Positions 435 through 57,406 of a DNA stretch of 64,000 nt are shown piece after piece. Numbering within the stretch: the stretch's first letter is position 1; the number at the start of each line of letters is the position of its first letter. The translations under genes were made by a program, and so were the position numbers. The stretch is from Gammaproteobacteria bacterium (GTDB taxonomy: Bacteria; Pseudomonadota; Gammaproteobacteria; GCA-001735895), in the NCBI GenBank assembly GCA_050306135.1, contig JBNLGQ010000029.1, forward strand, positions 128,585-192,584. The letters run 5' to 3'. The notes beneath the pieces are model-generated. The model did not search any database. It was not told where the DNA came from and was given only the letters and a program-made list of their open reading frames with translations.

Positions 435-2252
435 ATGAGCTGGCAACGAAAGATACTACGTATCAATCTGACGCAAGGAAGCTGTGAGGTTGAACCATTG
501 AATATGCAGTGGGCTGAACAATACCTCGGTCAACGTGGGCTGGGCAGTAAGTATCTACTGGAAGAAATGGATCCTGCAGTAGATGCACTATCGCCAGAAA
601 ATAAGCTGATCTTCGCCACAGGCCCACTAACTGGCACCATGGCTGCCACCGCTGGGCGTTATTCAGTCATTACCAAAGGACCGTTAACCGGTGCCATAGC
701 CTGTTCCAATTCGGGCGGAAAATTTGGCGCCGAACTGAAATTCGCCGGATATGATCTATTGATGATAGAAGGGCAGTCGGCAAAACCGGTTTATCTGCAT
801 ATCGAAAACGAAAAAGCCGAACTATGCGATGCGACTGATCTATGGGGACAGACTACCTGGCAAACGGAGTCCCTGATCCACGACCGATATCAGGATCCAC
901 TGATGCGCATCGCCAGTATCGGACCCGCTGGTGAAAACCTGTGTCGATTCGCCTGTGTAGTGAATGATAAGCATCGCGCGGCGGGTCGTTCCGGGGTAGG
1001 GTCTGTAATGGGGTCAAAGAGACTTAAGGCAATTGCAGTACGTGGAACTGCGGGACTAAAGCATGCAGATCCTCAACGTTTTGTCAGCCTGATCAATAGT
1101 ATCAATGCCCGACTCACACAGCGCGAAGGTTATACGCGCGATGGCACACTGGCGATGATCGATGTCACCAATCGCTTTGGCAGCCTGCCTACACGCAATA
1201 ACCGTAGTGTACGTTTTGAGGGGGCGCATAACCTCAATCCCGAAGCGATGCAAACCCCAAATCAACATGGGCATACCAATCTGGTGACCAATGCCGCCTG
1301 TTTTGCCTGCACCATCGCCTGTGGGCGTATCAGTAAGGTCGATCCGCAGCACTTCTCCGTCAGGGATAAACCTCAATATCATGGGGCCTCTGGAGGGCTG
1401 GAGTATGAATCAGCTTATGCACTGGGTGCCGCAGTGGGTGTGGATGACATCGACGCGGCAACTTACGCCGGTTTTCTGTGTAACGAATATGGTATGGATC
1501 CTATCTCTTTGGGAGGGACGATTGCTGCCGCCATGGAGCTTTACGATCTGGGTATCATTAATGAAGCTGATACCGGCGGAATCAAACTGGAATTCGGAAA
1601 TGCAGAAGCTTTGTGTCAGATCACCGAACTCACTGCAAGGGGGGAAGGTTTTGGTAAGGAAATAGGATTAGGTTCTCGTCGGCTGACGGAAAAATATGGT
1701 CATCCAGAGCTTTCCATGTCGGTTAAGGGGCAGGAGTTTGCTGCTTACGATGGGCGCAGTATGCAGGGTATGGGGCTGGCTTATGCAACCAGTAATCGAG
1801 GAGCCTGCCATTTGCGTGCGGCACCTTTCAAACATGATTTCAACACTACTGAGATTGCAGAAAAACCAACCATCGTAAAAGACAGTCAGGATGATATTGC
1901 TTTTATCGATTCCAGTGGCTTATGTCTATTCCCACGAGGTTGTGGATGGACCATAGAAGACTTTCTGGCTATGGTCGATGCCGACAGTGACAGTAAATGG
2001 GATTTACAGCGCTTAAGATTGACCGGGGAACGCATCTGGAACCTGGAACGACAGTTCAATTTACGTGCCGGATTTGAGGGTAAGGATGACACCCTGCCGC
2101 AAAGAATACTGCAGGAGCCAGCCGATGCAGGCGTCGCTAAAGGGCTGGTTAGTCGATTACCCGAAATGTTACCTGAATATTATCAACTGAGAGGTTGGGA
2201 TGAGCAGGGAATTCCTACTGCACAAACCCTGCAAAGGCTGGATTTAGAATAA
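435..2252 (+). CDS. aor: Aldehyde:ferredoxin oxidoreductase family protein (tungstopterin/4Fe-4S AOR catalytic subunit)
   Basis: 605 aa; AOR motifs SNSGG, RAAGRSGVGSVMGSKRLKAI, Fe-S motif CFACTIAC, ATSNRGACH, and C-terminal EYYQLRGWDEQGIP. Confidence 0.92.
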   Translation: MSWQRKILRINLTQGSCEVEPLNMQWAEQYLGQRGLGSKYLLEEMDPAVDALSPENKLIFATGPLTGTMAATAGRYSVITKGPLTGAIACSNSGGKFGAELKFAGYDLLMIEGQSAKPVYLHIENEKAELCDATDLWGQTTWQTESLIHDRYQDPLMRIASIGPAGENLCRFACVVNDKHRAAGRSGVGSVMGSKRLKAIAVRGTAGLKHADPQRFVSLINSINARLTQREGYTRDGTLAMIDVTNRFGSLPTRNNRSVRFEGAHNLNPEAMQTPNQHGHTNLVTNAACFACTIACGRISKVDPQHFSVRDKPQYHGASGGLEYESAYALGAAVGVDDIDAATYAGFLCNEYGMDPISLGGTIAAAMELYDLGIINEADTGGIKLEFGNAEALCQITELTARGEGFGKEIGLGSRRLTEKYGHPELSMSVKGQEFAAYDGRSMQGMGLAYATSNRGACHLRAAPFKHDFNTTEIAEKPTIVKDSQDDIAFIDSSGLCLFPRGCGWTIEDFLAMVDADSDSKWDLQRLRLTGERIWNLERQFNLRAGFEGKDDTLPQRILQEPADAGVAKGLVSRLPEMLPEYYQLRGWDEQGIPTAQTLQRLDLE

Positions 2253-6068: not shown

Positions 6069-7628
6069 ATGTCAAAACAGATGACTGAACACAAGATACT
6101 GGTGCAATCTATATTGCAGGGGAAGCTATTACCTGAGCAGGAGCATCAGTCGTTCAAATTAATTGAAACCCATATCTCATCGGTGATTGTGGGCGATGAC
6201 ATAGTGTATAAATTGAAAAAGCCTGTGGATTTCGGGTTTCTTGATTTCTCAACGTTACAAAAGCGGCATTTTTATTGCAACGAAGAGATACGTCTAAATC
6301 GACGTTTGAGTCCTCAGTTATATATTGATGTATTACCGGTCTATGGATCTGTTGATGATCCACTCTTAACGGCTCAGGGTAAAGCCATTGAGTATATGGT
6401 TCGTATGAAACCTTTTGCGCAATCTGCTCAACTGGATAGACTGATGCAACAAGGGAATTTGACCCTGGATATTATTAGGCGATTTGCAGACTATATTGCT
6501 GCTTTTCACCAGAACGCTGCTCGCGTTGATGTGAGTAGTTCTTTCGGTAATCCGGAAACGATCAAACTACCCGTGGATGAAAACTTTACACAGATAAGGT
6601 CATTCATAAAAAGTAACAGAGCGATTTATCAATTGCAGCAACTGGAAGTCTGGAGTGAAGCAGAATTTTCCTGTATTCAGTCGTTATTACAGCAGCGTAG
6701 AAGTGAGGGCTTTATTCGTGAATGTCATGGCGACTTACACCTACGCAATCTGGCCTGGATGAATGATCAGCCAATGGCCTTCGACTGTATTGAATTTGAT
6801 CCAAAGCTGTACTGGATAGACGTTATTAGTGACCTGTCTTTTCTGTGGATGGATCTACGACTTAATCAGCGAGAAGATTTAGCATGGTTACTATTGAACC
6901 AGTATCTATCTCGTAACGGAGATTATTCGTCACTGGCTGTGCTACGTTATTATTCGGTTTACCGTGCTCTGGTTCGAGCCAAGATTGCTGCTATCAATGT
7001 TTCTCAGTCAGGTTCAGAAGACTCGGTTGATGATCTTGAGAAGCACATGGATCTTGCGCTTACGCTCAGCAAACAATCCAAACCTGTCATCTACCTGATG
7101 CATGGCCCATCGGCTTCGGGTAAGAGTACTTTATCTCAGCAGCTTTCAGCGCCTTTGCAGGCTGTCATTCTGCGCTCAGATGTTGAACGTAAACGTTTGT
7201 TTGGGTTAATCGCAGAACACAATGCTGCAAGTGATCCTGATAAGGGTATATATAGCAGTGAAGCCACTCAACAAACCTATCAGCACATGCTTGAATTATC
7301 CTGCCAGGTACTCAGAGCCGGTTATTCAGTGATTGTCGATGCAACCTTCAGTGATCCGCATCAGCGGGCTTTATTTACTGAGGACGCCGATATCAAAAAA
7401 TACTGCTGTGTGATTCTGGATCTACAGGTGTCAGAGGCAAAATTAAGGCAACGTATACAACAACGGAAGCGAGATGTATCCGATGCTGATATTCGAATTC
7501 TGGAGAATCAATTACAAAACTGGCAGCCTCTTAATCAGGATGAAAAGGCTTATGCAGTCCAGATAGATCTTGATGAAGAGATTGATTTGCCGACTATTGT
7601 GGCTGAAATAAAGTCAGCTGAAACTTAG
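6069..7628 (+). CDS. Aminoglycoside-phosphotransferase-like kinase fused to AAA_33/P-loop kinase domain
   Basis: ETHIS...YKLKKPVDFGFLDFST, ECHGDLHLRN and DCIEF kinase motifs; Walker A GPSASGKS; IVDATF. Confidence 0.88.
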   Translation: MSKQMTEHKILVQSILQGKLLPEQEHQSFKLIETHISSVIVGDDIVYKLKKPVDFGFLDFSTLQKRHFYCNEEIRLNRRLSPQLYIDVLPVYGSVDDPLLTAQGKAIEYMVRMKPFAQSAQLDRLMQQGNLTLDIIRRFADYIAAFHQNAARVDVSSSFGNPETIKLPVDENFTQIRSFIKSNRAIYQLQQLEVWSEAEFSCIQSLLQQRRSEGFIRECHGDLHLRNLAWMNDQPMAFDCIEFDPKLYWIDVISDLSFLWMDLRLNQREDLAWLLLNQYLSRNGDYSSLAVLRYYSVYRALVRAKIAAINVSQSGSEDSVDDLEKHMDLALTLSKQSKPVIYLMHGPSASGKSTLSQQLSAPLQAVILRSDVERKRLFGLIAEHNAASDPDKGIYSSEATQQTYQHMLELSCQVLRAGYSVIVDATFSDPHQRALFTEDADIKKYCCVILDLQVSEAKLRQRIQQRKRDVSDADIRILENQLQNWQPLNQDEKAYAVQIDLDEEIDLPTIVAEIKSAET

Positions 7629-13517: not shown

Positions 13518-13654
13518 ACCACAGAGAACACAGAGAACTCAGAGAGGATAAGTTAGCTCGGTTTTAATCGAACAATCAGTTTGATACTTGAGAAAGCTTC
13601 CTTAAATCTAAAGATAAATATCTTCACCTCAGTGATCTCTGTGTCCTCTGTGGT
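13518..13654. repeat. REP/REPIN-like palindromic element, family A copy 2
   Basis: accacagagaacacagagaactcagagagg (13518) and cctcagtgatctctgtgtcctctgtggt (13627-13654), between convergent genes. Confidence 0.85.
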
Positions 13655-13724: not shown

Positions 13725-14132
13725 TCAAGGGGTAACGTACTGATAGCCTTGGTTCTGTAACTCAATAATCCGGCTAAAGATATTACTCACCAACTGTGGA
13801 GGGTGATTGAGGTTCAGTATATGTCGATTCTTGTAATAGTTATCGCGACTCACCTCGATTTGCAGGCCCAGGCTGATGAGTTCATCTAAACGTACACCCA
13901 GGTCACGGTTTTCATTGACCTTGTTTATCAGGTTGATGCCCGCCCCCTGCAGCAGGATTTTCACATCCATAGACTGATCCGCAGACCCGAGCAATAGATT
14001 TTCCAGGTTGGTAATGGTTTTCCATTGCACATCAGATCGACCGCTATTGAGGTGATATACGATTTTACTTGGTGCTGCCAGCAGATTCGTAGTGAATAGC
14101 AGACTGGCGATCAATATCAGCCACTTAACCAC
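13725..14132 (-). CDS. Secreted DsrE/DsrF-like protein lacking cysteine
   Basis: GTG 14132 overlaps the upstream stop and gives a signal peptide (MVKWLILIASLLFTTNLLA); KIVYHL..TNLENL..G.GINL..QGYQYV mirrors the DsrE domain of the upstream gene. Confidence 0.7.
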   Translation of the reverse strand: MVKWLILIASLLFTTNLLAAPSKIVYHLNSGRSDVQWKTITNLENLLLGSADQSMDVKILLQGAGINLINKVNENRDLGVRLDELISLGLQIEVSRDNYYKNRHILNLNHPPQLVSNIFSRIIELQNQGYQYVTP

Positions 14133-14838
14133 GGATATAGGTCCAGCCCTGTTGCTGACGTTCAATGACTTCTACAATACCTGATTCAATCAGTCTGGCC
14201 TGTGGAATGAGTTCTATCTCTTCATCGTTGGTTATTTGAATCTGGTCGATAGTGTTTTTACAGGCAGCAAATGTAAGATTTTTGTATTCACGGGTAAGGC
14301 GAGCAATCAATGGTCCAAAAGGTGTTGTATCCTGACGTAATAGATTGATTGCATGACCATTGGCAACCACTTCGACTCTGACATTCTGGCCACTTTTGCG
14401 ATATTCCTTCAGCATATTTTCCAGGTTTGTTAAGGTGTTAAGACCTGTATCGGAGTCAGAAGATGTCAAATGCACCAGTACTTTGGTGATAGCATCTGTA
14501 CCGGCCAGGACTTCACTTTGTTGATTTTTCTGTATTTGATGTAAGCCAGCTGTTCCAAGCAGAATCCCCAGGCAGAAGATAGCTACTGCGGCTGCCATGC
14601 GAGGCAAATAACTGGATTTTTTTATTACAGTTTCCGGTAACTGTGAAACTGGGATCTGGTCATAGGCCAGTTTTACACGCTGTTTTATGCGTTGCAATTC
14701 GCAAACTTTAGCAGCAAGGGCTTTATTCTGCTCAAGTAACACCAGTATTTCATGGCGCTCTTCGTCAGTAATCTGCCCATCGATAAATGAATTCAATAAT
14801 TCATCAGATATCGGATTGTTTGGATCCAGTGTGTTCAT
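14125..14838 (-). CDS. Membrane anti-sigma factor fused to a C-terminal DsrE-like domain
   Basis: N-terminal SDELLNSFIDGQ anti-sigma helix, TM at about aa 81-99, then VEVVANGHAINLL, FAACKNT (Cys193) and IERQQQGWTYIR, typical of DsrE/YchN-like proteins. Confidence 0.75.
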   Translation of the reverse strand: MNTLDPNNPISDELLNSFIDGQITDEERHEILVLLEQNKALAAKVCELQRIKQRVKLAYDQIPVSQLPETVIKKSSYLPRMAAAVAIFCLGILLGTAGLHQIQKNQQSEVLAGTDAITKVLVHLTSSDSDTGLNTLTNLENMLKEYRKSGQNVRVEVVANGHAINLLRQDTTPFGPLIARLTREYKNLTFAACKNTIDQIQITNDEEIELIPQARLIESGIVEVIERQQQGWTYIRG

Positions 14839-14841
14839 CCT

Positions 14842-15390
14842 CTATTTAACTCGGTGTATTCGTCTCTGTATGGGTTGTTCAATTTCATTACTATATTTTT
14901 CAAGCAAGCTTTTCAGCTGTGCTCGGGCTCGACATAAACGGCTCATTACTGTGCCAATCGGTATTTCCAGGGCATGTGATACTTCGTCATACGACATTTC
15001 CATCAGGTCTACCAACGTCACCACATTGCGGTGTTTCTCATTCAGTCGCGATATGCAATGACGCACAATCTGACTGGTGTCATTCTGATCGTAACTACTA
15101 GCGGGACCAAAATTGTCAGCAAAATCATAGTCATCTACATCTACGGTATCTTTCTGGCGACGCAGATGATCTCGAAAGCAATTGAGCATGATTCTACAGG
15201 TCCATGCATTCAATTTGCTGTCTTCCTTCAGGCTATCGAAGGATAGAAATGCTTTCTGCATTGCCTCCTGAACCAGATCATCAGCAAGCATCTGATCTGA
15301 GCACCATGAGTAGGCCAGTTTGTAAAATTTTATACGGTTTTCACATAACTCACGCGTTAATTTCCTGTGCCGATTGCGTTTTTTAAACAT
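14842..15390 (-). CDS. ECF sigma-70 family factor
   Basis: ADDLVQEA (region 2) and SYDEVSHALEIPIGTVMSRLCRAR (region 4); 3 bp upstream of its anti-sigma gene. Confidence 0.93.
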   Translation of the reverse strand: MFKKRNRHRKLTRELCENRIKFYKLAYSWCSDQMLADDLVQEAMQKAFLSFDSLKEDSKLNAWTCRIMLNCFRDHLRRQKDTVDVDDYDFADNFGPASSYDQNDTSQIVRHCISRLNEKHRNVVTLVDLMEMSYDEVSHALEIPIGTVMSRLCRARAQLKSLLEKYSNEIEQPIQRRIHRVK

Positions 15391-15408
15391 ATCAATGACC
15401 GCTAGTAG

Positions 15409-15437
15409 TTAGAGTGTTGTTGTAATAATTTTATTCC
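15409..15437 (-). promoter_or_regulatory. Candidate autoregulatory ECF promoter GGAATA-N17-CTCTAA
   Basis: Minus strand reads GGAATAaaattattacaacaacaCTCTAA, ending 18 nt before the sigma ATG. Confidence 0.55.
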
Positions 15438-15601
15438 ATAAAATTCAGCGTAAAAGCCGGTTTCAGACTTGAAATGCTGTCATATTATAGTGGTATGCCC
15501 CTGCAGATTTTGCAGGTAGCATTCTAATTTATGAAATCCCTGTTTATTTGTATATAGGTTTTTATGTGAACTGAACGTGAAATCCTGCTCTTAAAGTTCA
15601 T

Positions 15602-22881: not shown

Positions 22882-23562
22882 TTATGAGCTTATTTCTGCA
22901 GCTTCTACGCCGATAGTTTGTGCAGTCGAAATCATGCGTTGTTCGATGAGATTCTTACCCACGATTAATAGCGCTAAGCCAAAAAATGCTCCTGGTGGTA
23001 GCACTGCTACTAGAAAACCGCGGTAATCCTGAAACAGGGTAACTGTCAGAATACTGGCGGCATCTCCAAACATGATGTCAGCCTGAGCGAAAACAGTACC
23101 AAAGCCGATGATTTCTCTCATCATGCCAAGTACCGTCAGTACTAGTAAAAAGCCAAGCCCCATCATGAATCCATCAAGTGCAGATACGCCTACCGGGTTG
23201 CGTGATGCAAACCCTTCTGCTCTGCCAATGATGGAACAATTGGTGACGATTAGTGGGATAAAGATGCCTAATACCAGATACAGTTCGTAAAACCAGGCTT
23301 TCATGATCAATTCGATGATCGTTACAATTGAAGCGATAATGAGTACAAATACGGGTAGTCTGACTTCCTGTCTGACTACATCGCGTATCAGGGAAACCAG
23401 TGAATTGGATATTACCAGTGTCATCATTGTGGCCAGGCCTAGACCTATGCCGTTGATAGTGGTGCTGGTGACTGCCAGCAGTGGGCACAGGCCGAGTAGC
23501 TGCACCAGAGCGACATTGTTTTTCCACAAGCCATTGCGTGTGATTTCGCTTTTGCTGTTCAT
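22882..23562 (-). CDS. rnfE: Rnf electron transport complex subunit E
   Basis: QLLGLCPLLAVT and FIPLIVTNC motifs. Confidence 0.95.
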   Translation of the reverse strand: MNSKSEITRNGLWKNNVALVQLLGLCPLLAVTSTTINGIGLGLATMMTLVISNSLVSLIRDVVRQEVRLPVFVLIIASIVTIIELIMKAWFYELYLVLGIFIPLIVTNCSIIGRAEGFASRNPVGVSALDGFMMGLGFLLVLTVLGMMREIIGFGTVFAQADIMFGDAASILTVTLFQDYRGFLVAVLPPGAFFGLALLIVGKNLIEQRMISTAQTIGVEAAEISS

Positions 23563-24188
23563 TGGAAGAGTTTCTCACGGTTAGCCTGAAAATAATCCAG
23601 AGTATTCTTAACGGCTTTGACAATGGCTCTTGGCGTGATGGTTGCACCTGTAATCTGGTCGAAATCACCGCCATCGCGTTTTACTTTCCATTTTTCTATG
23701 CCCGGGTTGTGTAGCGATTTGCCATCAAATCCCAGAATCCAGTTGGACTTGCGTGCTTCTATTCCATCGCCCAGTCCAGGGGTTTCGTTATGCTTAACGG
23801 CTCTCACACCCGCCAGCGTTCCATCGTAGTAAACGGCTATCAGCAGATATATTTTGCCGTTGTAGCCATCTGGTGCGATGGCATTGAATATGGCGGCCAC
23901 CGGCTCGCCATTTTTGCGAGCCCTGTACACAATGCTGGGTTTTTCAGTACCCAGCCGCGCGGAAGGTGCGACCTCCAGAGTATCCTGAGCAATATCGTTA
24001 TCGAGTTTTTCCTGAGGGATTAATATGTAGAGATTTCTCAGTAAAACCATACGTTCATTAGCGGCAATTTGTTCCTCTGTTCCAACCTGTGTGAAGGCCA
24101 CCAGCGAGGTGCCAACGACGGCAAAAAGCCATAACAGGAATCCTGAGATAACGATCTGTACAAATTTGCTGTTAAGTTCTATTTGCAT
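23559..24188 (-). CDS. rnfG: Rnf subunit G
   Basis: HNETPGLGD and FMN-binding DQITGATITPRA motif. Confidence 0.95.
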   Translation of the reverse strand: MQIELNSKFVQIVISGFLLWLFAVVGTSLVAFTQVGTEEQIAANERMVLLRNLYILIPQEKLDNDIAQDTLEVAPSARLGTEKPSIVYRARKNGEPVAAIFNAIAPDGYNGKIYLLIAVYYDGTLAGVRAVKHNETPGLGDGIEARKSNWILGFDGKSLHNPGIEKWKVKRDGGDFDQITGATITPRAIVKAVKNTLDYFQANREKLFQ

Positions 24189-25219
24189 TAGTGATCTTCC
24201 GGAGGCTTAACGCCGAAAACACGGGGCTGAGTGTAATAATCGATAAGAGGAACTGTCATATTGGCTAATAGAACGGCAAAGGCGACACCATCGGGATAGC
24301 CTCCCCAACTGCGAATGATGTAAACCAGAACCCCAATCATAAAGCCATAAATCAGACGCCCTTTTTTAGTGGTTGAAGCTGTTACCGGATCAGTGGCAAT
24401 AAAGAAAGCCCCCAGCATGATCCCTCCTGAGAACAGGTGAAAGCCCGGTGAGGCGACACTATCAGGATTGACCACATAAAACAGGGTAGCAATCAGTAGT
24501 AAACCAAAAATCATTGCTACCGGAATATGCCAGCGGATCGTTTTGGTGAATAGGAGATAGATACCTCCGATAAACCACCAGTTGGCTATCCATTCCCAGC
24601 CTACGCCTGCAAAATCGCCGAATACGGGTGATTGTTTGATTTCGCTAACCATCATATTCAGGCCCAGATTAGTCTTGAACTGATCCAGTGGAGTAGCTGA
24701 TGTTAATGCATCCCATTGTTGCATGTCGACCAGACCCAGAGTGTAACTAAAAGCCTGTGCCAGATTGAGAGAATCACCACTAATCTGTATCGGCAGAAAC
24801 CAGTTGGTCATGTCCTTGGGGAAGGAAATCAATAGCACTACATAACCCACCATGGCCGGGTTAAAAGGATTAAAGCCTAATCCCCCATACAGGTGTTTGC
24901 CGGCTATCATGGCAAACCCTATACCTACCGCTATTAACCACCAGGGGCTATGCATAGGGATACACAGGGCCAATAACCAGGCGGTGACCACTGCGCTGTA
25001 ATCTGAAAGGTAAGGTTTAAGCGGACGTTTACGTAGCAGCAGGATTATCGTTTCAAATAACAATGCAAACCCGATAGCGAATACCAGGTTAACAATAAGT
25101 CCAACGCCAAAATACCAGATATACGCCACTGAGCCTGGAATCAGCGCAATGATCACATTCAACATCATGCGGTTGATGCGAGCAGATGGGGAAATGAATG
25201 GAGAAGATATCAGGCTCAT
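24188..25219 (-). CDS. rnfD: Rnf subunit D
   Basis: KHLYGGLGFNPFNPAM, DALTSATPL and FFIATDPVT motifs. Confidence 0.95.
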   Translation of the reverse strand: MSLISSPFISPSARINRMMLNVIIALIPGSVAYIWYFGVGLIVNLVFAIGFALLFETIILLLRKRPLKPYLSDYSAVVTAWLLALCIPMHSPWWLIAVGIGFAMIAGKHLYGGLGFNPFNPAMVGYVVLLISFPKDMTNWFLPIQISGDSLNLAQAFSYTLGLVDMQQWDALTSATPLDQFKTNLGLNMMVSEIKQSPVFGDFAGVGWEWIANWWFIGGIYLLFTKTIRWHIPVAMIFGLLLIATLFYVVNPDSVASPGFHLFSGGIMLGAFFIATDPVTASTTKKGRLIYGFMIGVLVYIIRSWGGYPDGVAFAVLLANMTVPLIDYYTQPRVFGVKPPEDH

Positions 25220-26880
25220 GGATTTTCCGGTTTGTTGCTGTTTCGACGAGCCTCGGCTTCATCAATCTGGCGTTGTTGAGCTGGCGTAAGATTCTCGATA
25301 TTTTTGGGTTTTACCGCCTGCTGGCTTTTGCGTGCTTTAACACGTTCCAGCGCAGCCTGTACCGCATCAGCAGTAGGCGAAGAGGTGGCTTCAGTATTTG
25401 CGGTTTCTGACTTAGCCTGTTGTTCGGTCTGTTTCTTCTTATCAAGCGCTTCACGCCTTTCACGTCGGCGCTCTTCATCCTGCATCTTTTGCTTGAGGAT
25501 GCGAGCTTCGCGAAATTCATGGCGTTTACGTGCACGATCAGACTGGTAGGTTTTCTTGCGTTGCTCCCAGATTTCACTCTTGGAGAATCGATAATATTGC
25601 ACCAGAGGGATATGGCTGGGACATACCGCTGAACAACATCCACATTCAATACAGTCGAATAAATGATATTGCTCAGATAATTCAAACTGTCTTGAACGGC
25701 TGTGCCAGTAAAGCTGCTGCGGAAGTAAATTCACCGGACACACTTCAGCACATTGACCACAGCGTACACATTCAGTCGCCTCGGGCTGGTCGAGTTTATC
25801 GAGCACAAGAATGGTGTTGGTGGCTTTTACTACCGGAATCTGGTCGCTATGCAAGGGCAGCCCCATCATTGGTCCACCCATAATCAGTAAGGGCTTATCC
25901 ACTTTATAGCCACCAGCGAGTTCTATCAGATGACTGATTGGAGTACCTATTGCGACATGCCAGTTACCAGGATTTTTGATGCCAGGCCCGGTCACTGTGA
26001 CAATACGCGAAGTGAGTCGCAGGTTCTCATCAATGGCATCTGCAATGGCAGCACAGGTACCCACATTTTGTGTTAGAAAGCCAATCTTGAAGGAGAGTTC
26101 ACCACTTAATACCTCGCGTCCGGTGAGTACCTTAATCAGCTGCCTTTCTCCCCCTGAAGGATAGAGTGTGGGAATAGATATAACCTGTGTATCAGCCAGC
26201 TCAAGCTCTTTCAATGCTTTACGCATGGCCTTAATAGCAGCGGGCTTGTTGTCTTCAATGCCAATCAAAGTTTGCTGGGGCTTGAGCAGGTTTTGTAAAA
26301 TCTGGATACCACGCATCACTTTGGGGGCATCGTGTTGCATCAGGATATCATCACAGGTGATATAGGGTTCGCATTCGGCGCCATTGATCACCAGAGTTTC
26401 TATCCGATGCTGTATCGCGGTTTCCAGTTTGGCGGCGGTAGGAAAGACCGCCCCCCCCAGACCCACAATGCCGCATTGTCGAATACGCTCCAGTATGTCT
26501 TGCGTACTGAGGTCAGAATTAACTGATTTACTACTGTTGATGTGGCTGTCGGTGCCATAGGGTTGAATAACAATACACAGGTCGGTTTGACCAGAAGGGT
26601 GTGCTATAGGTCGATCTTCAATTGCGGTGATGACACCTGAGGCTGGCGAATGGACCGGAGCACTGACAAACTCTATGGTTTCAGCCAATAACTGTCCTTT
26701 TTTGACGGACTGGCCAACCTTAACCAGAGGGCTGTTCGGTTCCCCAATGTGTTGACTGACGCGCACAATGATTTCATTCGGCAGGCTGGCAATTTGGATT
26801 TCACCACCCAGTGATTCCTTTTTGTGGTCCTCAAGATGTAGACCGCCATGAAACTTAAATGACCCTGGATTACCCGACAT
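25216..26880 (-). CDS. rnfC: Rnf subunit C
   Basis: Start at ATG 26880 ([13 protein letters not shown]); [24 protein letters not shown] and CIECGCC motifs; charged C-terminal tail. Confidence 0.94.
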
Positions 26881-27433
26881 GCTGCCCTCCTGCGGTGTCT
26901 GGTGCGGACCATTTCCAGTCTGCCAGGGTTCGCTTGACCGGAACCATGGCAATACAGTCGACCGGGCAGGGTGGCAGGCAGAGTTCACAGCCAGTACATT
27001 CATTGGCGATAATGGTGTGCATATGTTTTGCCGACCCCAGTATGGCATCTACAGGACAGGCCTGGATGCAGAGTGTACAACCGATGCAGGTTTGTTCGTC
27101 GATATGAGCTACGGTAGGGACGTCTTTGTGTTCACCGTGTTCAGCGCTGAGTTCTAACACCTCAACATCCAGCAGGTCTGCCAGCATAACTATGGTGTTC
27201 TGACCACCGGGAGGGCATTGGTTGATTGGAGCTTCTCCATTAGCGATAGCTTCTGCGTAGGGGCGGCAGCCTGCAAAACCACACTGGCCGCACTGGGTTT
27301 GTGGCAGGATCGCATCGATTTGTTCAACAATAGGGTTGCCTTCAACCTTGAAACGAATAGCCGCGTAGCCAAGAATCAGGCCGAAGCTTCCGGCTATAAA
27401 ACTGAGAGTGAATACGGCAATAAGGACTAACAT
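26870..27433 (-). CDS. rnfB: Rnf subunit B
   Basis: [20 protein letters not shown] and two CxxCxxCxxxCP motifs. Confidence 0.95.
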
Positions 27434-39588: not shown

Positions 39589-40218
39589 ATGAGTGATGAC
39601 CGACTAACTCCTGAAAGAAAGAAAATTGATGAAGGGGGAGTAAAACTTACCGACGAGGCTTTCATAGCAGAGTTACGTAAAAAAATGCTCAAATTTGCAA
39701 TGCTTCAGTTATCTGATCCACATCTGGCTGAAGATGCTGTTCAGGAAGCTCTGATTGCTGCGTTAAAGAATGCAGATTCTTTTCATCGCCGATCTGCTCT
39801 AAAGACATGGGTGTTTGCTATATTGAAAAATAAGATTGCTGATGTTTTAAGACAGAAAACACGCCGATCAGAAGTGAGTCAGCTGTCTACAGATGTTGAA
39901 GGTGATGACAGTCTGGATAAGCTTTTTAATGCCAGAGGTTTCTGGCAGGCAGATGAGAAGCCTGTAACCTGGTCTGAACCGATGGAGTCTGTACAAAACG
40001 GTCACTTCTGGCTGGTATTCGAAGCCTGTCTTGAGCATTTGCCAGAAAGCCAGGCTCGGCTGTTTATGATGAGGGAATTTATTCAGTTGGACACGGCTGA
40101 GATATGCGAAACCCTGAAAATATCTACCAGTAACCTGCATGTCATGTTGTATCGCTCCAGATTACGCTTAAGAGAATGCCTGGAGAATAACTGGTTCAAA
40201 GATGGAGAAAAGTCATGA
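39589..40218 (+). CDS. ECF sigma-70 factor (TIGR02943-like)
   Basis: AEDAVQEA, LKTWVFAILKNKI and NLHVMLYRSRLRLRECLE motifs. Confidence 0.92.
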   Translation: MSDDRLTPERKKIDEGGVKLTDEAFIAELRKKMLKFAMLQLSDPHLAEDAVQEALIAALKNADSFHRRSALKTWVFAILKNKIADVLRQKTRRSEVSQLSTDVEGDDSLDKLFNARGFWQADEKPVTWSEPMESVQNGHFWLVFEACLEHLPESQARLFMMREFIQLDTAEICETLKISTSNLHVMLYRSRLRLRECLENNWFKDGEKS

Positions 40219-40475: not shown

Positions 40476-40529
40476 TGGATTTAAGCTGCATCCATAAGGG
40501 TGCCTGTCTTTTTTATCTGGAATTTGAAC

Positions 40530-41483
40530 ATGCTTGATACCTTACCCTATCTGGAAACAACAGAGTTTCCGCTGATTACCAGACGCAGTCTGGAAACACT
40601 GCAGGTTAACCTTGGATACCGCTGTAATCAGACCTGCCTACATTGTCACGTGAATGCCGGGCCTCATAGAACAGAAATGATGGATCAACACACATTACAG
40701 CAGATTTTGCCTGTGTTGCTTAAACATAATATAGCAACGCTTGATCTAACTGGAGGGGCTCCTGAGATGCATGATGGATTTCGTGAACTGGTTAGCTCGG
40801 TCACAAATGCAGGTGTTCATGTGATTGATCGCTGTAACCTGACGATCCTGTTCGAACCCGGACAGGAGGGGTTAGCTGAATTCCTTGCTGACGAAGGCGT
40901 TGAAATTGTTGCTTCTTTGCCCTGTTACACATTGGAAAACGTAGATCAGCAGCGTGGCAAAGGTGTTTTTGATAAGAGTATCGCGGGTCTACAGAAGCTC
41001 AACGCTCTCGGTTATGGCAAACCGGGAAGCGGTTTAAAGCTCAATCTGGTGTACAACCCTCAGGGTGCTCAGCTACCGCCTGATCAACAGCAGCTGGAAT
41101 GCGACTATAAGCGCGAACTAAAGGACCATTTTGCAATTGAATTTAATGAACTGTTTGTACTTGCCAATATGCCTGTTAAACGATTTGGTTCCACCTTACT
41201 CTCTAAAAATGGCCTTGACGATTACATAGCATTATTAAAAGCGAATTTCTCCGAACAAAACCTGGAGCAGGTTATGTGCCGCTCTATGCTAAGCGTAGAT
41301 TGGCAGGGGTATCTGTATGACTGTGATTTTAATCAACAACTGGGTATGAATCTTGATGGTTCAAAAAAGCCTGAATTAAAAGATTTACTGAATACGAAGC
41401 TGGAAGGGAAAACCATTCGTGTTGCGGATCACTGCTTTGGTTGTACTGCGGGTCAGGGTAGTAGCTGTGGCGGTGCGCTCTAA
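40530..41483 (+). CDS. arsS: ArsS-family radical SAM protein (DUF3641 C-terminus)
   Basis: CNQTCLHC motif, LDLTGGAPE, SLPCY, YDCDFNQ and the C-terminal HCFGCTAGQGSSCGGAL; ATG 40530. Confidence 0.88.
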   Translation: MLDTLPYLETTEFPLITRRSLETLQVNLGYRCNQTCLHCHVNAGPHRTEMMDQHTLQQILPVLLKHNIATLDLTGGAPEMHDGFRELVSSVTNAGVHVIDRCNLTILFEPGQEGLAEFLADEGVEIVASLPCYTLENVDQQRGKGVFDKSIAGLQKLNALGYGKPGSGLKLNLVYNPQGAQLPPDQQQLECDYKRELKDHFAIEFNELFVLANMPVKRFGSTLLSKNGLDDYIALLKANFSEQNLEQVMCRSMLSVDWQGYLYDCDFNQQLGMNLDGSKKPELKDLLNTKLEGKTIRVADHCFGCTAGQGSSCGGAL

Positions 41484-42315
41484 AAACTGGCAGCAAAAGC
41501 TGCCTGTCAAGGTTATTGTGTTATTAGCGGCGCTGACTATACAGTCAGTAGCTGCGGATAATTTTGATCATTCGATATGGGATAAACTGTTAAAGCAACA
41601 TGTGGAAAAAAAGGGCCTTTCCACGGTCGTGGATTATCGAGGCATGTTGTCTGATCATGCCCAGCTGAAACAGTATCTAAAGTCTATATCAACACTACTT
41701 CAACAGGAATTCGAGGAAATGGATTCCTCCTCCCAGCTGGCTTTTTTGATCAATGCTTATAATGCTTGGACGATAGAACTGGTTCTAAGCAACTACCCTG
41801 AACTAAATTCCATTAAAGATCTAGGCAATTTTATAGTTTCCCCCTGGAGTAGAGACTTTATTCCTCTGTTCGGAGAAAAATACTCACTGAATGATATCGA
41901 ACACAGGTTTATTCGTGGATCTGGACGATATCAAGATCCACGCATACATTTTGCGATTAATTGTGCCAGTATCAGTTGTCCGGCATTACGAGCGGAAGCT
42001 TATTGGGGGGATTTTCTAGATACTCAGTTTGAACAGCAGACGCGACTTTTCCTGTCTAATCAGAATCACAATCGCATTCAAAGTGATGTGTTACAGCTGT
42101 CATCTATTTTTAAATGGTATCGCTCTGACTTTGAGAAGGAGTGGATGGGCTGCAACTCATTAAATGATTTTTTGCTGCGATATGCTGATGAGCTTAAGTT
42201 AACAGCAGCGCATATTAAGCGCTTAAAAGATAATAAACAGATTATTGAATTTCTTGACTATGACTGGGGGCTCAATTCAAAAGCTGCTAAATCATCTCAA
42301 ACGGCGAGAAAATAG
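41473..42315 (+). CDS. DUF547 domain secreted protein
   Basis: LAFLINAYNAWT, DPRIHFAINCASISCP and FLDYDWGLN motifs; GTG 41473 gives a signal peptide. Confidence 0.88.
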   Translation: MRSKNWQQKLPVKVIVLLAALTIQSVAADNFDHSIWDKLLKQHVEKKGLSTVVDYRGMLSDHAQLKQYLKSISTLLQQEFEEMDSSSQLAFLINAYNAWTIELVLSNYPELNSIKDLGNFIVSPWSRDFIPLFGEKYSLNDIEHRFIRGSGRYQDPRIHFAINCASISCPALRAEAYWGDFLDTQFEQQTRLFLSNQNHNRIQSDVLQLSSIFKWYRSDFEKEWMGCNSLNDFLLRYADELKLTAAHIKRLKDNKQIIEFLDYDWGLNSKAAKSSQTARK

Positions 42316-42329
42316 AGATAATAATTACT

Positions 42330-43379
42330 ATGAAACCTTTTTATTATATGCAGGTGATAGTAATCATGTTCTTTATGATTCAATCGTCTCTGGTTGAGGC
42401 TAGCGACGAAATAAAGGAGCCTGTTACTGTTTCTATCTATATTGATAATGATTTATTCACGGGTAGTAACAGAGATGAAAATTACACCGGTGGTTTCGCG
42501 TTAACCTATTCTGGGGCAAAGGCTGCTAATCATCCTTTTTCTATTGATAAGGCTTTAAGATGGGTAAATGATTTAACAGGAGTTTCATCTGTTGCTCGTA
42601 ATGGCGATCGAATCTGGCACTCCTGTGAAGCGGGCCTGGCCGCATTTACACCCATCGATCTAGATAGTCGGCAGCCAATTACCAATGACCGACCCTATGC
42701 TGGTCTAGTTTATTTATCCAATGCGCAACAAACAGTTAGCGCAGAAACTCGCAGCGCCTTGATTAGTACGCTGACCCTGGGTTTTCTGGGTCTTCATTTA
42801 ACAGCCGAAACTCAAAACTCTATCCATGAAATGATTGGCTCAAGTAAGGCTGAAGGCTGGGATAATCAAATATCAGAAGGCGGTGAGGCTACCTTTAAAT
42901 ATTCATTAACCTGGCAGAAATATCCCGATTTAAAAAATAATAATCTACAGGCGACTACATCCTTAGGGGTTAGTATCGGTTACCTGACCGAAGCCGTCGC
43001 CGGTGCTAGTTTTCGCTTCGGAAGAATACATACTCCATGGTGGAGTTTTAATGTGCATAATAGTAACTACGGTGAAAAATCGAACGTCACTCTGCCGACA
43101 TCAAATTTTAAAGATGAGTTTTATGGGGTAGTCGGTGCGAATATCAAACTACGTATTTTTAACGCGTTGTTACAAGGTCAATTTCGGGATAGCAAGGTGA
43201 CCTACTCATCCAGTGATCTGGAGCCTGTGGTACTTGAAGCCTGGATAGGTGTGGGAAGTGAGTTTAAATCAGGCCTGCGACTCAGTTATCTTTTGCGCTA
43301 CCAAACCAGCGAGTTTAAAACCGGTCTGTCTGATCGAGGGTTTAGCTATGGTGAGATTGTAGCCAGCTATAAGTTTTAA
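42330..43379 (+). CDS. LpxR/DUF2219-family outer-membrane beta-barrel protein
   Basis: Signal peptide; DNDLF...D.NYTGG, DRPYAG, GWDNQI motifs; terminal Phe. Confidence 0.8.
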   Translation: MKPFYYMQVIVIMFFMIQSSLVEASDEIKEPVTVSIYIDNDLFTGSNRDENYTGGFALTYSGAKAANHPFSIDKALRWVNDLTGVSSVARNGDRIWHSCEAGLAAFTPIDLDSRQPITNDRPYAGLVYLSNAQQTVSAETRSALISTLTLGFLGLHLTAETQNSIHEMIGSSKAEGWDNQISEGGEATFKYSLTWQKYPDLKNNNLQATTSLGVSIGYLTEAVAGASFRFGRIHTPWWSFNVHNSNYGEKSNVTLPTSNFKDEFYGVVGANIKLRIFNALLQGQFRDSKVTYSSSDLEPVVLEAWIGVGSEFKSGLRLSYLLRYQTSEFKTGLSDRGFSYGEIVASYKF

Positions 43380-46559: not shown

Positions 46560-47282
46560 CTAACTCAAGTTGAAGGATAAAGGGATTTCAAACTGCCACT
46601 GCAGACGATTTATTTTTTCAGGAAAGGGGAGTTTCCCTGAAACGGCCTGTATCGCCTTGATGACGGCTTTATCCAGAATCTTATGCCCTGTGGAATCGAT
46701 AACGCGAATCTGTTTGACGGTGCCATCACTCAATACAAGAAAACTTACAATTGCCCTGCCTTCTATATTACGGCGTTGTGCGCGCCGAGGGTAATCCTTG
46801 CTGGCATCGATTAACTTGCTCAGGGTTAGTCGATACTCATCTTCCAGCCTGGTAATTAGTCCGGGATCATGCATCATCTTCTCGGGTTCTGCTTCCAATG
46901 CAGCTACCGGCTGTGGAGGCGGTGCTGCCTGCACAATCTCTGGTTGCGGCTCGACCTCTGGTTTCGGTGGTTCTATTTTTTTCTCTACTACAGGCTTTCT
47001 CATCGGCCTGGGTTTAGGCTTTACGATGGGTTTGGTTTTCTTTTTTACTACGGGTTTCGGCTTGACCGGTTTGGGAGGAGGAGTTACCGGTTTTGGTGGC
47101 TCAGGAATAATGGTCTTAACTGGTTCGGGAACTGTTTTGAACATCGCCAGTTTTAATGGGGTAGTTGTTTGTTTATTGCTGGCAGAAGTGAATTTTCCTG
47201 AAAAATAGGGGATAGCGACCGCTGCATGTATGAGTGCAGAAAAAAAGATGGCTATCAACTCGAAATGGAAATTTCTGGGCAT
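46560..47282 (-). CDS. tonB: TonB energy transducer
   Basis: N-terminal TM, Pro/Lys-rich linker, YPRRAQRRNIEG C-terminal domain. Confidence 0.9.
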   Translation of the reverse strand: MPRNFHFELIAIFFSALIHAAVAIPYFSGKFTSASNKQTTTPLKLAMFKTVPEPVKTIIPEPPKPVTPPPKPVKPKPVVKKKTKPIVKPKPRPMRKPVVEKKIEPPKPEVEPQPEIVQAAPPPQPVAALEAEPEKMMHDPGLITRLEDEYRLTLSKLIDASKDYPRRAQRRNIEGRAIVSFLVLSDGTVKQIRVIDSTGHKILDKAVIKAIQAVSGKLPFPEKINRLQWQFEIPLSFNLS

Positions 47283-48086: not shown

Positions 48087-48731
48087 TTAAAATGCCATAG
48101 CAATGCGATAACTACCGATAGCAACCAGTACACTGCTACCGAACCAGACCAATCCCTGTTTCAGCCAGGGGCTGCGACTACGTAGTTCCTGCCCCAACTT
48201 GCCGAGTAAAGGCAGGATAATAAAAAGCGGGGTAATCGCTGCACCAAGGCCAAATACAAATCCGTAGGACATTCCCAGGGTGAAGCTTCCGGCTGCAGCA
48301 CAGGCAGCTAACAGGGCGGCAAGTGGCGCACAGGGAATAAAGCTAAGAGAAAAACCCATCATGAAAGGATGCATATTGTGTCGCTTACTGATCGCGCAAC
48401 CACGGTGCTGCTTACCCATGTTGTAAATTAACCAGATACCTGCCACTACACTGCTGACTCCGATTAATACATTGCCAATACCGCTACGCAGGTAATGCAG
48501 CAGAAATTCACCAGTAATACCTGCGAATGCACCTAGTGTTGCATAGGCTGTCACTTTTCCAGCAGCAAATAATCCGGCATCAATCATGCTGCCTTTCATA
48601 CCCAGATTGCGGCTCATTACCCAGCTGCCCATAAAGGGCAGGCAGGATGCTGTGCAGGCGGTAAAGCCTACGGTGATGCCGAGAATCCACACCGAAAATA
48701 GTCCGACCTGTTGCAGTACGATATTGTCCAT
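48087..48731 (-). CDS. CcdA/DsbD_2 (TauE/UreH-like) membrane protein
   Basis: Six hydrophobic segments with the Cys motifs ACTASCLP and FIPCAPL. Confidence 0.7.
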   Translation of the reverse strand: MDNIVLQQVGLFSVWILGITVGFTACTASCLPFMGSWVMSRNLGMKGSMIDAGLFAAGKVTAYATLGAFAGITGEFLLHYLRSGIGNVLIGVSSVVAGIWLIYNMGKQHRGCAISKRHNMHPFMMGFSLSFIPCAPLAALLAACAAAGSFTLGMSYGFVFGLGAAITPLFIILPLLGKLGQELRSRSPWLKQGLVWFGSSVLVAIGSYRIAMAF

Positions 48732-49786
48732 CAGACTGGCTCCACGGTAACGGGGCGAGGTTTAGCTTTTTTTGTAGGCTTTATACCTTCAGGCTTTTCC
48801 TGCTTGATACGTTTCTTGTAGTACTCTCTGTTAGAGCTAAATAATGCTATCGGGCCAAACTTGACTTGAATGACACCGTCATCAGGACAGAATTCAGCAC
48901 AGCGTCCGCATAAAGTGCAGTCATCGTGAAAGGCTTTGCTGCCTGATTGTTTCCAGATTTCCTGAATATCCATCGGGCAGGCCTTTGTACAGACGCCACA
49001 TTTTTCGCATTTCTCATGTTCTTTCTTTACCAGTCGTGTGGGCGATAGTTTCTGGAACAGAGCATTGAATGCGAGTAAGGGACAGATTCTACAAAATGGC
49101 TGACGCATGGTCATCGATAACACAACAATCGTGCCGAATAACAATGCACGTATAGATGAAAAAATGATATCAGCGATACCTGCGGTGTTAATGGTTAACT
49201 GTTCAAAGTTACCACTAGCTAATGTGGTAAGAACACGAGATGGACAGACCTGACAAAAGGCATCACCGGCAGCGTGCGGTGCTACGCCAAGTCCAGCGAC
49301 CAGGGGCAGGATAAAAACCAGTATGGCCAGCATTAACCATTTTATTGGACGTACATATCGCAGCTGATTTTGCGCAAGGCTGTGGTTTTTCTGTAGCCCA
49401 AAGAAGTGTGACATCTTGTACATCATTTCCTGAAAGGTACCCAGCGGGCAGATCCAGCCGCAGAACATCTTATTCAGAAAAACAAAAAATACATAAAATG
49501 ACAGAAAGGTGAACAGTAGAGGAATGACGACCTTGTAACTGAATTGCTGTATCTGTACTAATGCTTCTCCAACACGATGGTGCAATTGATGCTGGGTAGG
49601 TATCAGTACGCAATAACCTCCATTTAACTGATCGTAGGCACAGGAAAGAGCAGGCAGAGATCCTGAGATTTTTTCTGCAGAATAGTGACCTACAAGAAGG
49701 CCGCCATATACCAGAAAAAGAAAGGATAGAATTTGTACGACAAATCGTACACGGCCAAGAGTAGGTGCGCTTATGGATGAGCTCAT
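48731..49786 (-). CDS. Membrane 4Fe-4S protein (NapH/CcoG/NosR-like)
   Basis: FCGWICPLG, FCRICP, CEKCGVCTKACP and CTLCGRCAEFCP motifs. Confidence 0.85.
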   Translation of the reverse strand: MSSSISAPTLGRVRFVVQILSFLFLVYGGLLVGHYSAEKISGSLPALSCAYDQLNGGYCVLIPTQHQLHHRVGEALVQIQQFSYKVVIPLLFTFLSFYVFFVFLNKMFCGWICPLGTFQEMMYKMSHFFGLQKNHSLAQNQLRYVRPIKWLMLAILVFILPLVAGLGVAPHAAGDAFCQVCPSRVLTTLASGNFEQLTINTAGIADIIFSSIRALLFGTIVVLSMTMRQPFCRICPLLAFNALFQKLSPTRLVKKEHEKCEKCGVCTKACPMDIQEIWKQSGSKAFHDDCTLCGRCAEFCPDDGVIQVKFGPIALFSSNREYYKKRIKQEKPEGIKPTKKAKPRPVTVEPV

Positions 49787-57196: not shown

Positions 57197-57406
57197 ACCA
57201 CGAAGGTCACGAAGAACACGAAGATTTTTTTGGTGGGGGATGGGTTGTTGATTGGTGGCTTGCTGGCGCTGCGGTGGGTAGTTGGGGGCTGGAAAGGCTT
57301 TTTAACCACGGAGCACACAGAGAACACAGAGAAGAAAATCTTTTTTAATCTTCGTGCCTTTCGTGGTTTACATCACAAACCTCTGCGTACTCTGTGCCTC
57401 CGTGGT
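57197..57406. repeat. Two interleaved family-A palindromes (A-B-A'-B')
   Basis: A accacgaaggtcacgaag (57197) pairs with A' 57347-57367; B accacggagcacacagagaacacagag (57305) pairs with B' 57381-57406. Confidence 0.8.

Follow-up and report, generated by a model that had tools for sequence, protein, structure and literature searches.

Some extracytoplasmic function (ECF) sigma factors of group ECF26, namely RpoE4, RpoE1 and SigE, are responsive to compounds that generate sulfite (PMC3511301, PMC6527743). ECF26 anti-sigma factors consist of an anti-sigma domain (ASD), one transmembrane helix and an RsiW-like (COG5662) periplasmic domain, and the activation mechanism of the sulfite-responsive members has been described as hypothetical (PMC6180224). 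Here we examine a 64,000-nucleotide stretch of gammaproteobacterial DNA (the window, to which all coordinates refer) that carries a related system with a different sensor. Three genes on the minus strand at 13725-15390 encode an ECF26-like sigma factor, a single-pass anti-sigma factor ending in a DsrE-fold domain with one cysteine, Cys193, and a secreted DsrE-fold paralog. The locus is read as an autoregulated ECF26-like sigma/anti-sigma module with a new kind of sensor, in which a sulfur species acting on Cys193 would release the sigma factor. This reading as a whole is given an even chance. The architecture is highly likely to be as described, that the sigma and anti-sigma factors form a functional pair is very probable as well, if a shade less so, and that the signal is a sulfur species acting at Cys193 is rated somewhat below even. 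Architecture and regulon are well supported.

The operon was delimited from the list of open reading frames (ORFs) and by direct reading of the sequence. The sigma gene (14842-15390, 182 amino acids) is followed by the anti-sigma gene (14125-14838, 237 amino acids) and by the gene for a Cys-less paralog (13725-14132, 135 amino acids, GTG start at 14132). The sigma gene ends in GTT AAA TAG, then AGG, and then comes the ATG of the anti-sigma gene, leaving a gap of 3 bp. The anti-sigma and third genes overlap by 8 bp in GTGGTTAA, which contains the GTG that starts the third gene as well as the TAA that ends the anti-sigma gene. The third gene is longer in the mechanical ORF list (13725-14165, 146 amino acids, from a TTG at 14165). 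Independent gene calls on a public contig (NCBI GCA_050305115.1, a gammaproteobacterial metagenome-assembled genome (MAG)) give products of 182, 237 and 135 amino acids. The tight three-gene operon with this gap and overlap, described in an earlier note made on this DNA from its letters, is confirmed by the direct reading and by the independent calls. The sigma and anti-sigma ORFs lie in one reading frame with only TAG AGG between them (14836-14847, minus strand), and read-through of this single stop would yield a sigma/anti-sigma fusion protein. The junction is probably plain tight translational coupling.

Related loci were collected in a genome scan with one genome per species and one peptide pattern. 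The scan returned 342 relatives; neighborhood counts use the best 80 of these, with ORFs called mechanically. In 71/80 loci the fusion gene is immediately preceded by a sigma gene, usually with a 4-bp overlap; the arrangement is not due to chance. Most loci that do not have an upstream sigma gene are contig ends or matches to the C-terminal domain only.

The 182-residue sigma factor contains Pfam Sigma70_r2 (1.9e-12) and Sigma70_r4_2 (3.5e-13), that is, regions 2 and 4 only, and scores 83.6 bits against TIGR02937 (sigma70-ECF; cutoff 42.9 bits). The earlier assignment to the ECF sigma factors was therefore correct. The two-region composition and a size within the range of about 180-200 amino acids are those of ECF (group 4) sigma factors. 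In silico, so are the co-transcribed anti-sigma gene and an autoregulated promoter of the AAC/AAT (-35), CGT (-10) type. The best plasmid-borne relatives are Rhizobiaceae ECF sigma factors with 35-43% identity. One of these, on pSymA of Sinorhizobium meliloti, is 39% identical to the window protein (E 3e-28) and has the sequence ADDLVQ in common with it. Its gene is divergent from an S8 peptidase gene and has an anti-sigma gene downstream. Since the same arrangement has been described for rpoE6, a member of ECF26 (PMC6180224), this locus is read as rpoE6-type.

The regions upstream of the sigma gene in 69 loci yielded a promoter motif de novo. The dyad GGAAT-N17-CGTC occurs in 36/69 of these regions, and in shuffled sequence no dyad occurs more than 7 times. 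The refined weight matrix has the consensus tGGAATAaa-N15-CGTCt. The sulfite-responsive RpoE4/SigE promoters have GGAAT at -35 and CGTC at -10 (PMC6527743), and the general ECF26 consensus is GGAATA at -35 and GT at -10 (PMC6180224). The de novo motif carries the ECF26 elements, GGAATA at -35 and (C)GT(C) at -10. Kinship with the sulfite-responsive ECF26 sigma factors, which had been suggested earlier, is upheld by this shared GGAAT/CGTC consensus together with the 39% identity to the rpoE6-type sigma factor and the common ADDLVQ.

The matrix was run over both strands of 1.9 Mb of loci with a threshold of >=17 bits. It gave 84 hits, of which 57 precede sigma genes, the training class, and match by construction. 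The remainder are located before divergent secreted paralogs (22), before a porin gene (1) and elsewhere (4). The 22 paralog sites lie on the opposite strand directly before the paralog genes and are outside the training set. In the window, the predicted autoregulated promoter TTATGGAATAAAATTATTACAACAACACTCTAACTA (15406-15441, minus strand) scores 26 bits, and the next best site in the 64 kb reaches at most 13.1 bits. Its -35 element GGAATA is at 15437-15432 and its -10 element ACTCTA at 15415-15410, about 20 nucleotides ahead of the sigma ATG. The earlier note had placed the end of the system at 15437, which is the first G of this independently derived -35 element. An ACTCTAA -10 variant is common to all relatives in the clade of the window. 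An exact search of the window for GGAAT-N17-CGTC was tried and rejected in favor of the weight matrix; its count was not above chance, and the real site was missed owing to its ACTC -10.

The predicted regulon comprises the operon itself, plus secreted paralogs and a porin where these are encoded separately. In the window, the sole such promoter in 64 kb is predicted to drive the operon including the Cys-less paralog. In most other lineages the regulon is predicted to extend to an anion porin of the OprO/P type and to secreted DsrE paralogs, one or two in number, that bear the cysteine.

A word-indexed search found 96 full-length homologues of the anti-sigma factor, and an exhaustive profile search was run in addition. 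Conservation was scored over 240 full-length members with 27-100% identity. The AlphaFold2 model, for which 27 homologues were used, reaches a mean predicted local distance difference test (pLDDT) score of 84.7. It shows three N-terminal helices (12-19, 25-37 and 39-60), a long helix (78-102), a low-pLDDT linker of 12-15 residues (103-114) and an alpha/beta domain (118-236) with pLDDT >90.

The three helices make up the cytoplasmic ASD (residues about 10-60, 14659-14811, minus strand). In hhalign, the profile of the N-terminal region aligns with residues 2-56 of the annotated ECF26-type anti-sigma factor of the S. meliloti pSymA rpoE6-type pair (probability 93.4%, E 2.5e-7). Weak Pfam matches to zf-HC2 were found in 19/28 members and to RseA_N in 4/28, and in the window protein this region has no Pfam match above threshold. 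Because the search of the N-terminal profile against solved structures returned coiled-coil noise only and no anti-sigma factor, the assignment rests on hhalign and the zf-HC2 matches. With the modelled helices at 12-60, these matches give the protein the N-terminal helical domain of a class I anti-sigma factor. Asp20 is invariant (240/240) and sits in a typical xxDGxL helix. By this homology the N-terminal domain would be the part that binds the sigma factor. The HxxxCxxC motif of zinc anti-sigma (ZAS) domains was not found in residues 1-70, where Cys46 is the sole cysteine, and the predicted ASD is therefore of the non-zinc kind. The whole protein carries three cysteines, at positions 46, 89 and 193. 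Cys46 (14701-14703, minus strand; RVCELQ in the third ASD helix) is kept in 199/240 members despite the absence of a zinc-finger motif. A second, cytoplasmic redox input through Cys46 is conceivable.

The long helix corresponds to the single transmembrane helix (residues about 78-102, 14533-14607, minus strand). It is the only hydrophobic segment of the protein, with a Kyte-Doolittle maximum of 2.25 against <=0.82 elsewhere, and Lys73, Lys74 and Arg80 mark its N-terminal side. The ASD must meet the sigma factor in the cytoplasm, and the chain crosses the membrane once; we infer from this that the C-terminal domain is periplasmic. A cytoplasmic ASD followed by one membrane span had been proposed before, and both assignments are retained.

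The C-terminal domain (residues about 116-237, 14128-14493, minus strand) belongs to the MTH1491/ST0148 (COG1416) subfamily of the DsrE fold. Structures from this branch have been solved since 2002. A search of the PDB with the anti-sigma sequence matched MTH1491 (1l1s, E 4e-11) and also ST0148 (2pd2). The profile of the domain gave 1l1s at E 1.8e-20 and 2pd2 at E 1.4e-9, with a His, ACxNT and GWxYI aligned, and it is on this homology and these residues that the subfamily assignment is based. In Foldseek searches of the PDB, the modelled domain superimposed on 1l1s with a template modelling (TM) score of 0.91 and on 2pd2 with 0.89, followed by DsrE of DsrEFH (2hy5_A) and YchN (1jx7). The Pfam DsrE family (PF02635) scores 20.6 bits over residues 147-235, just below its gathering cutoff of 22.7 bits. 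Several orthologues bear a precomputed PF02635 match, and orthologues are labelled COG1416 by JGI.

Cys193 (codon TGT, 14260-14262, minus strand) is the cysteine of the sequence FAACKNT and aligns with the cysteine of MTH1491 (FcACsNT). It is invariant in 240/240 members, the C-terminal domain contains exactly one cysteine in 240/240, and the same column is Cys in 80/80 genomic loci. Trp232 is likewise invariant (240/240), and His123 (231/240) and Asn160 (226/240) are nearly so. Strands 1-3 carry Cys193, His123 and Asn160 at their C-terminal ends, which form the active edge usual for the DsrE-type fold. The DsrE fold proposed earlier for this protein and the conservation of Cys193 are both supported.

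The product of the third gene has an N-terminal hydrophobic helix in its AlphaFold2 model (residues 2-17, pLDDT 88.2 for the model), consistent with a signal peptide at about residues 1-20. Foldseek places it in the DsrE-type alpha/beta fold as well, with 1l1s (TM score 0.80), DsrEFH (2hy5) and TusBCD (2d1p) as matches. It is 37% identical (E 7e-8) to residues 116-169 of the anti-sigma factor, the first half of the sensor domain. Its Pfam DsrE score is 14.1 bits (cutoff 22.7), and secreted paralogs at related loci reach 45.4 and 25.9 bits. The column of the conserved cysteine holds Ser in the window protein and Ser or Gly in all 22 aligned homologues, which have 32 invariant columns. The earlier note had taken this gene to encode a secreted DsrE paralog. 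That assignment stands, with the qualification that by its sequence the protein cannot serve as a persulfide carrier. The loss of the cysteine from a paralog that stays strongly conserved suggests that in the clade of the window it acts as a binding partner or modulator, not as a carrier.

Secreted DsrE-fold paralogs are found near 59/80 loci and are Cys-bearing in 46 of these. At 35 loci they are divergent from the sigma gene, and all of these bear the cysteine. Downstream paralogs are Cys-bearing at 11 loci and Cys-less at 13, the latter including the window and its clade. Seven loci (L036, L037, L042, L050, L056, L057 and L071) carry tandem paralogs of two distinct subtypes. One subtype has VVYHIN...F(Q/R)VCNNT, and the other has IVLQ(I/V)S...FSAC(A/E)NT, in which Gln replaces His. 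The two subtypes are reminiscent of the differentiated subunits of DsrEFH.

In 22 loci the divergent DsrE paralogs adjoin a gene for an outer-membrane protein of about 450 amino acids (for example L022, 5208-6581, and L055, 5295-6704; range L018-L065). It is of the OprO/P anion-porin type, with one member scoring above the Pfam Porin_O_P cutoff. Another member is weakly like the porin ExtI, which belongs to a selenite/tellurite reduction operon (E 3.6e-5, below cutoff), and a search of solved structures with the porin gave nothing useful. The porin gene of L055 has its own ECF-type promoter site. A SulP anion transporter gene (Sulfate_transp plus STAS) lies 3' of the sigma/anti-sigma pair in L082 (11503-13665, Thiogranum longum), L022, L045, L070 and L080. 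Thiogranum longum and the SulP-bearing loci of the Thiohalobacter type do not have a nearby paralog.

The family is large. The profile search returned 4061, 1329 and 531 representatives at E<=1e-3, 1e-10 and 1e-30, respectively, which amounts to at least 531 clusters at 50% identity at the last threshold. The best 150 matches are all full-length fusions of 228-303 amino acids. Hosts named to family or genus in the record titles are nearly all sulfur oxidizers and include Acidiferrobacteraceae, Ectothiorhodospiraceae, Thioalkalivibrio, Thiohalobacter, Thiobacillus, Sulfuriferula, Sedimenticola, Ca. Thiodiazotropha and Thiogranum. Cultured carriers are Thiogranum longum and Sulfuriferula sp. GW1.

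A mechanism can be proposed from these features. At rest, the sigma factor would be held at the membrane by the cytoplasmic ASD while the DsrE-fold domain, with its unpaired Cys193, faces the periplasm. A thiol-reactive periplasmic sulfur species would then modify Cys193. Candidate ligands are polysulfide or other sulfane sulfur, thiosulfate or tetrathionate, and sulfite acting on an oxidized cysteine. Persulfidation of Cys193 as the trigger, put forward in the earlier note, is likewise a hypothesis. The modification would alter the domain's conformation or oligomeric state and lead to inactivation of the anti-sigma factor, for which regulated proteolysis across the short linker, known from other single-pass anti-sigma factors, is the most likely route. 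The freed sigma factor would transcribe from GGAATA-N17-CGTC-type promoters its own operon and the DsrE-paralog and porin genes. The secreted Cys-less paralog may bind the sensor domain as a periplasmic modulator, in a role like that of RseB or of DsrF/H. A sulfur species and Cys193 are placed at the center of this mechanism because of the fold family, the absolute conservation of the cysteine, its unpaired state in an oxidizing compartment, the distribution of the family among sulfur oxidizers, and the kinship with ECF26 and its sulfite-responsive members.

No protease gene is consistently linked to the pair among the 80 related loci. A DegP-like gene near seven betaproteobacterial loci was considered as the site-1 protease and rejected; it lies inside a petABC/sspA syntenic block, and its presence looks like plain synteny.

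Several observations weigh against the proposed mechanism. That the anti-sigma factor binds the sigma factor is predicted from homology and the order of the genes. To our knowledge, the MTH1491/COG1416 subfamily has no known biochemical function, and we know of no persulfide chemistry shown for it. The likeness of the sensor domain to DsrE and TusD is structural only, at the level of the fold (Foldseek, PDB profile). The cysteine is absent from the window paralog and its clade, and because of this a Cys-to-Cys relay cannot be universal. The -10 element in the window has ACTC, not CGTC. A Pfam survey of about 40 window proteins turned up no sox, sor, sqr, dsr or tusA genes, and clustering of neighboring ORFs showed none to be conserved near the 80 loci. 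The linkage to sox, sor or sqr genes that the earlier note had raised thus failed to appear in either the 64-kb window or the related loci. The taxon labels used here are the titles of MAG records.

The absence of linked sulfur-oxidation genes fits an alternative in which Cys193, within the same architecture, senses a thiol-reactive agent other than a sulfur compound. Such an agent might be an oxidant (H2O2 or HOCl), a soft metal (Cu, Ag or Hg) bound by Cys193 with His123, or selenite or tellurite, in which case the regulon would serve to protect the periplasm. A single unpaired invariant cysteine, a nearly invariant His123 and a co-regulated OprO/P-type anion-selective porin with one weakly ExtI-like member (E 3.6e-5, below cutoff) would suit this explanation too. 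It is nevertheless considered unlikely. The family is concentrated in sulfur oxidizers, the promoter and sigma type match those of sulfite-responsive ECF26 members, and the output of the regulon is more DsrE-fold Cys proteins, not known detoxification enzymes. Still less can be said for the view that the 237-residue protein is merely a membrane-anchored periplasmic DsrE-like carrier whose position beside a sigma gene reflects co-expression and not regulation. In its favor, the window protein has no Pfam match above threshold in its N-terminal region, and the solved-structure profile search found no anti-sigma factor. The hhalign match (probability 93.4%) to the N-terminus of an ECF26-type anti-sigma factor, zf-HC2 in 19/28 members, the invariant Asp20 in its xxDGxL helix and a sigma gene that abuts or overlaps the fusion gene in 71/80 loci all speak for an anti-sigma factor. 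So does the order of ASD, one transmembrane helix and periplasmic domain, which equals that of ECF26 anti-sigma factors (PMC6180224). The carrier view is therefore regarded as highly improbable.

The paralogs raise a different question, namely whether the periplasmic domain is a chemical sensor at all. It could instead be a docking module that joins the secreted paralogs in a DsrEFH-like hetero-oligomer, so that the anti-sigma factor reads the amount, folding or loading of the paralog by partner titration. The cysteine would then serve catalysis or assembly, and the Cys-less paralog of the window clade would be a dedicated partner. DsrEFH (2hy5) and TusBCD (2d1p), both matched by Foldseek, are obligate oligomers. 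A paralog is encoded beside the pair in 59/80 loci under the same promoter type, and in the window the third gene shows translational coupling to the anti-sigma gene; its product shares 37% identity with the first half of the sensor and has 32 invariant columns. Set against this, about a quarter of the loci, including that of Thiogranum longum, have no nearby paralog. Moreover, the sensor cysteine is absolutely kept while the paralog may lose its own, which points to chemistry on the sensor itself. Docking is accordingly judged about as improbable as sensing of a non-sulfur agent, and modification of Cys193 by a sulfur species remains the preferred reading.

A further extension of the sulfur/Cys193 reading is rather doubtful. 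Together with the secreted paralogs and the anion porin, the sensor domain might form a periplasmic sulfur relay, an extracytoplasmic counterpart of DsrEFH/TusBCD, and the ECF anti-sigma factor might directly read the loading state of this relay (persulfide or thiosulfonate on the invariant cysteine). If this were true, it would be the first transmembrane signaling pathway triggered by cysteine persulfidation outside the cytoplasm and the first function for the MTH1491/COG1416 family. Extracytoplasmic sensing of reduced or reactive sulfur by sulfur-oxidizing bacteria is poorly understood. The family offers a single absolutely conserved candidate reactive residue, a defined promoter, a small predicted regulon and cultured hosts. 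It provides a functional lead for the orphan MTH1491/COG1416 branch, and possibly a compact biosensor for sulfur species. It also corrects the annotation of these membrane anti-sigma factors as "intracellular sulfur oxidation DsrE/DsrF" proteins.

The neighbors of the operon in the window are housekeeping genes (nadC, a vanZ-like gene, glycolate oxidase and an aminotransferase). Scans with Rfam and for terminators found nothing. A 27-nucleotide inverted repeat (13518-13654), 85% complementary and with arms 83 nucleotides apart, lies between the third gene and the vanZ-like gene that converges on it. Its 20-nucleotide unit, CCACAGAGAACACAGAGAAC, occurs twice more after the NAD synthase gene (57306-57334), where none is expected by chance. 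The CCACAGAGAACACAGAGAAC repeat looks like a small intergenic family of the REP/MITE type, and it might also serve as the terminator of the operon.

Elsewhere in the window, a second ECF sigma gene (39589-40218, plus strand) is followed at 40500-43379 (plus strand) by genes for radical-SAM/DUF3641, DUF547 and LpxR-like outer-membrane proteins. A 519-residue Zeta_toxin/AAA_33 protein (6069-7628, plus strand), kinase-like with a weak APH match, is syntenic in related MAGs. A cluster at 48087-52754 (minus strand) encodes a TonB-dependent receptor, a DUF4198 protein and a polyferredoxin-like membrane protein along with a DsbD_2-type protein; together with the TonB gene at 46560-47282, this cluster probably serves metal uptake. 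An aldehyde:ferredoxin oxidoreductase (435-2252, plus strand) and an Rnf-type complex (22882-27048, minus strand) hint that the host has a low-potential way of life, possibly a microaerobic or anaerobic one.

Compared with known systems, the locus is closest to the ECF26 pairs, represented by RpoE4-EcfR4, RpoE1 and the pSymA-borne RpoE6-EcfR6 of S. meliloti and by SigE of Starkeya novella. Like these, it combines a small two-domain sigma factor with a co-transcribed single-pass anti-sigma factor, and it shares their GGAAT(A)/CGTC consensus, a homologous ASD and, with the RpoE6-type protein, 39% sigma identity. It differs in the periplasmic domain, which here is a DsrE fold with an invariant cysteine in place of the COG5662/RsiW-like domain that characterizes ECF26 anti-sigma factors. 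The predicted regulon contains secreted DsrE paralogs and a porin, not sulfite dehydrogenase, and the hosts are Gamma- and Betaproteobacteria, mostly lithotrophic sulfur oxidizers. The system is therefore provisionally classed as ECF26-like with a replaced sensor domain, not as an established member of ECF26, a placement judged by promoter, sequence identity and ASD. The RseA-RseB-sigmaE and RsiW-sigmaW systems, whose anti-sigma factors are released by regulated proteolysis, resemble the locus in topology and in having a short linker next to the membrane. A further likeness is the periplasmic partner encoded in the same transcript, which could guard the anti-sigma factor; here an RseB-like role of this kind is proposed for the product of the third gene. 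RseA_N is matched weakly in 4/28 members, and the sensor fold and the presumed signal are different.

The sensor domain has the fold of MTH1491 (1l1s) and ST0148 (2pd2) and is clearly homologous to them, sharing the His...ACxNT...GWxYI residues including the cysteine. Those are small soluble archaeal proteins without a signal sequence, whereas the domain described here would be periplasmic and is fused to a transmembrane helix and an ASD. With DsrEFH and TusBCD it shares the DsrE-type alpha/beta fold and a conserved cysteine after the central strand, but the PDB profile search found no match to them at the sequence level. The paralogous subunits of DsrEFH keep the cysteine only in part (DsrE versus DsrF/H), which resembles the pairing of the sensor with a Cys-less paralog. 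DsrEFH and TusBCD are cytoplasmic hetero-hexamers that act with DsrC, TusA or TusE and have no regulatory role. The domain studied here is C-terminal to a transmembrane helix and on that basis would be periplasmic; no dsrC, tusA or tusE gene was found in the window or among the recurrent neighbors. Full-text literature searches found no description of a DsrE-containing anti-sigma factor, in agreement with the earlier remark that no such fusion had been characterized; a mention in the supplement of the ECF reclassification (PMC7826278) is possible. In databases the fusion proteins are named "hypothetical" or "intracellular sulfur oxidation DsrE/DsrF family protein". ECF sigma/anti-sigma signaling is thus the known part of this system, and the DsrE-fold sensor domain is the new one.

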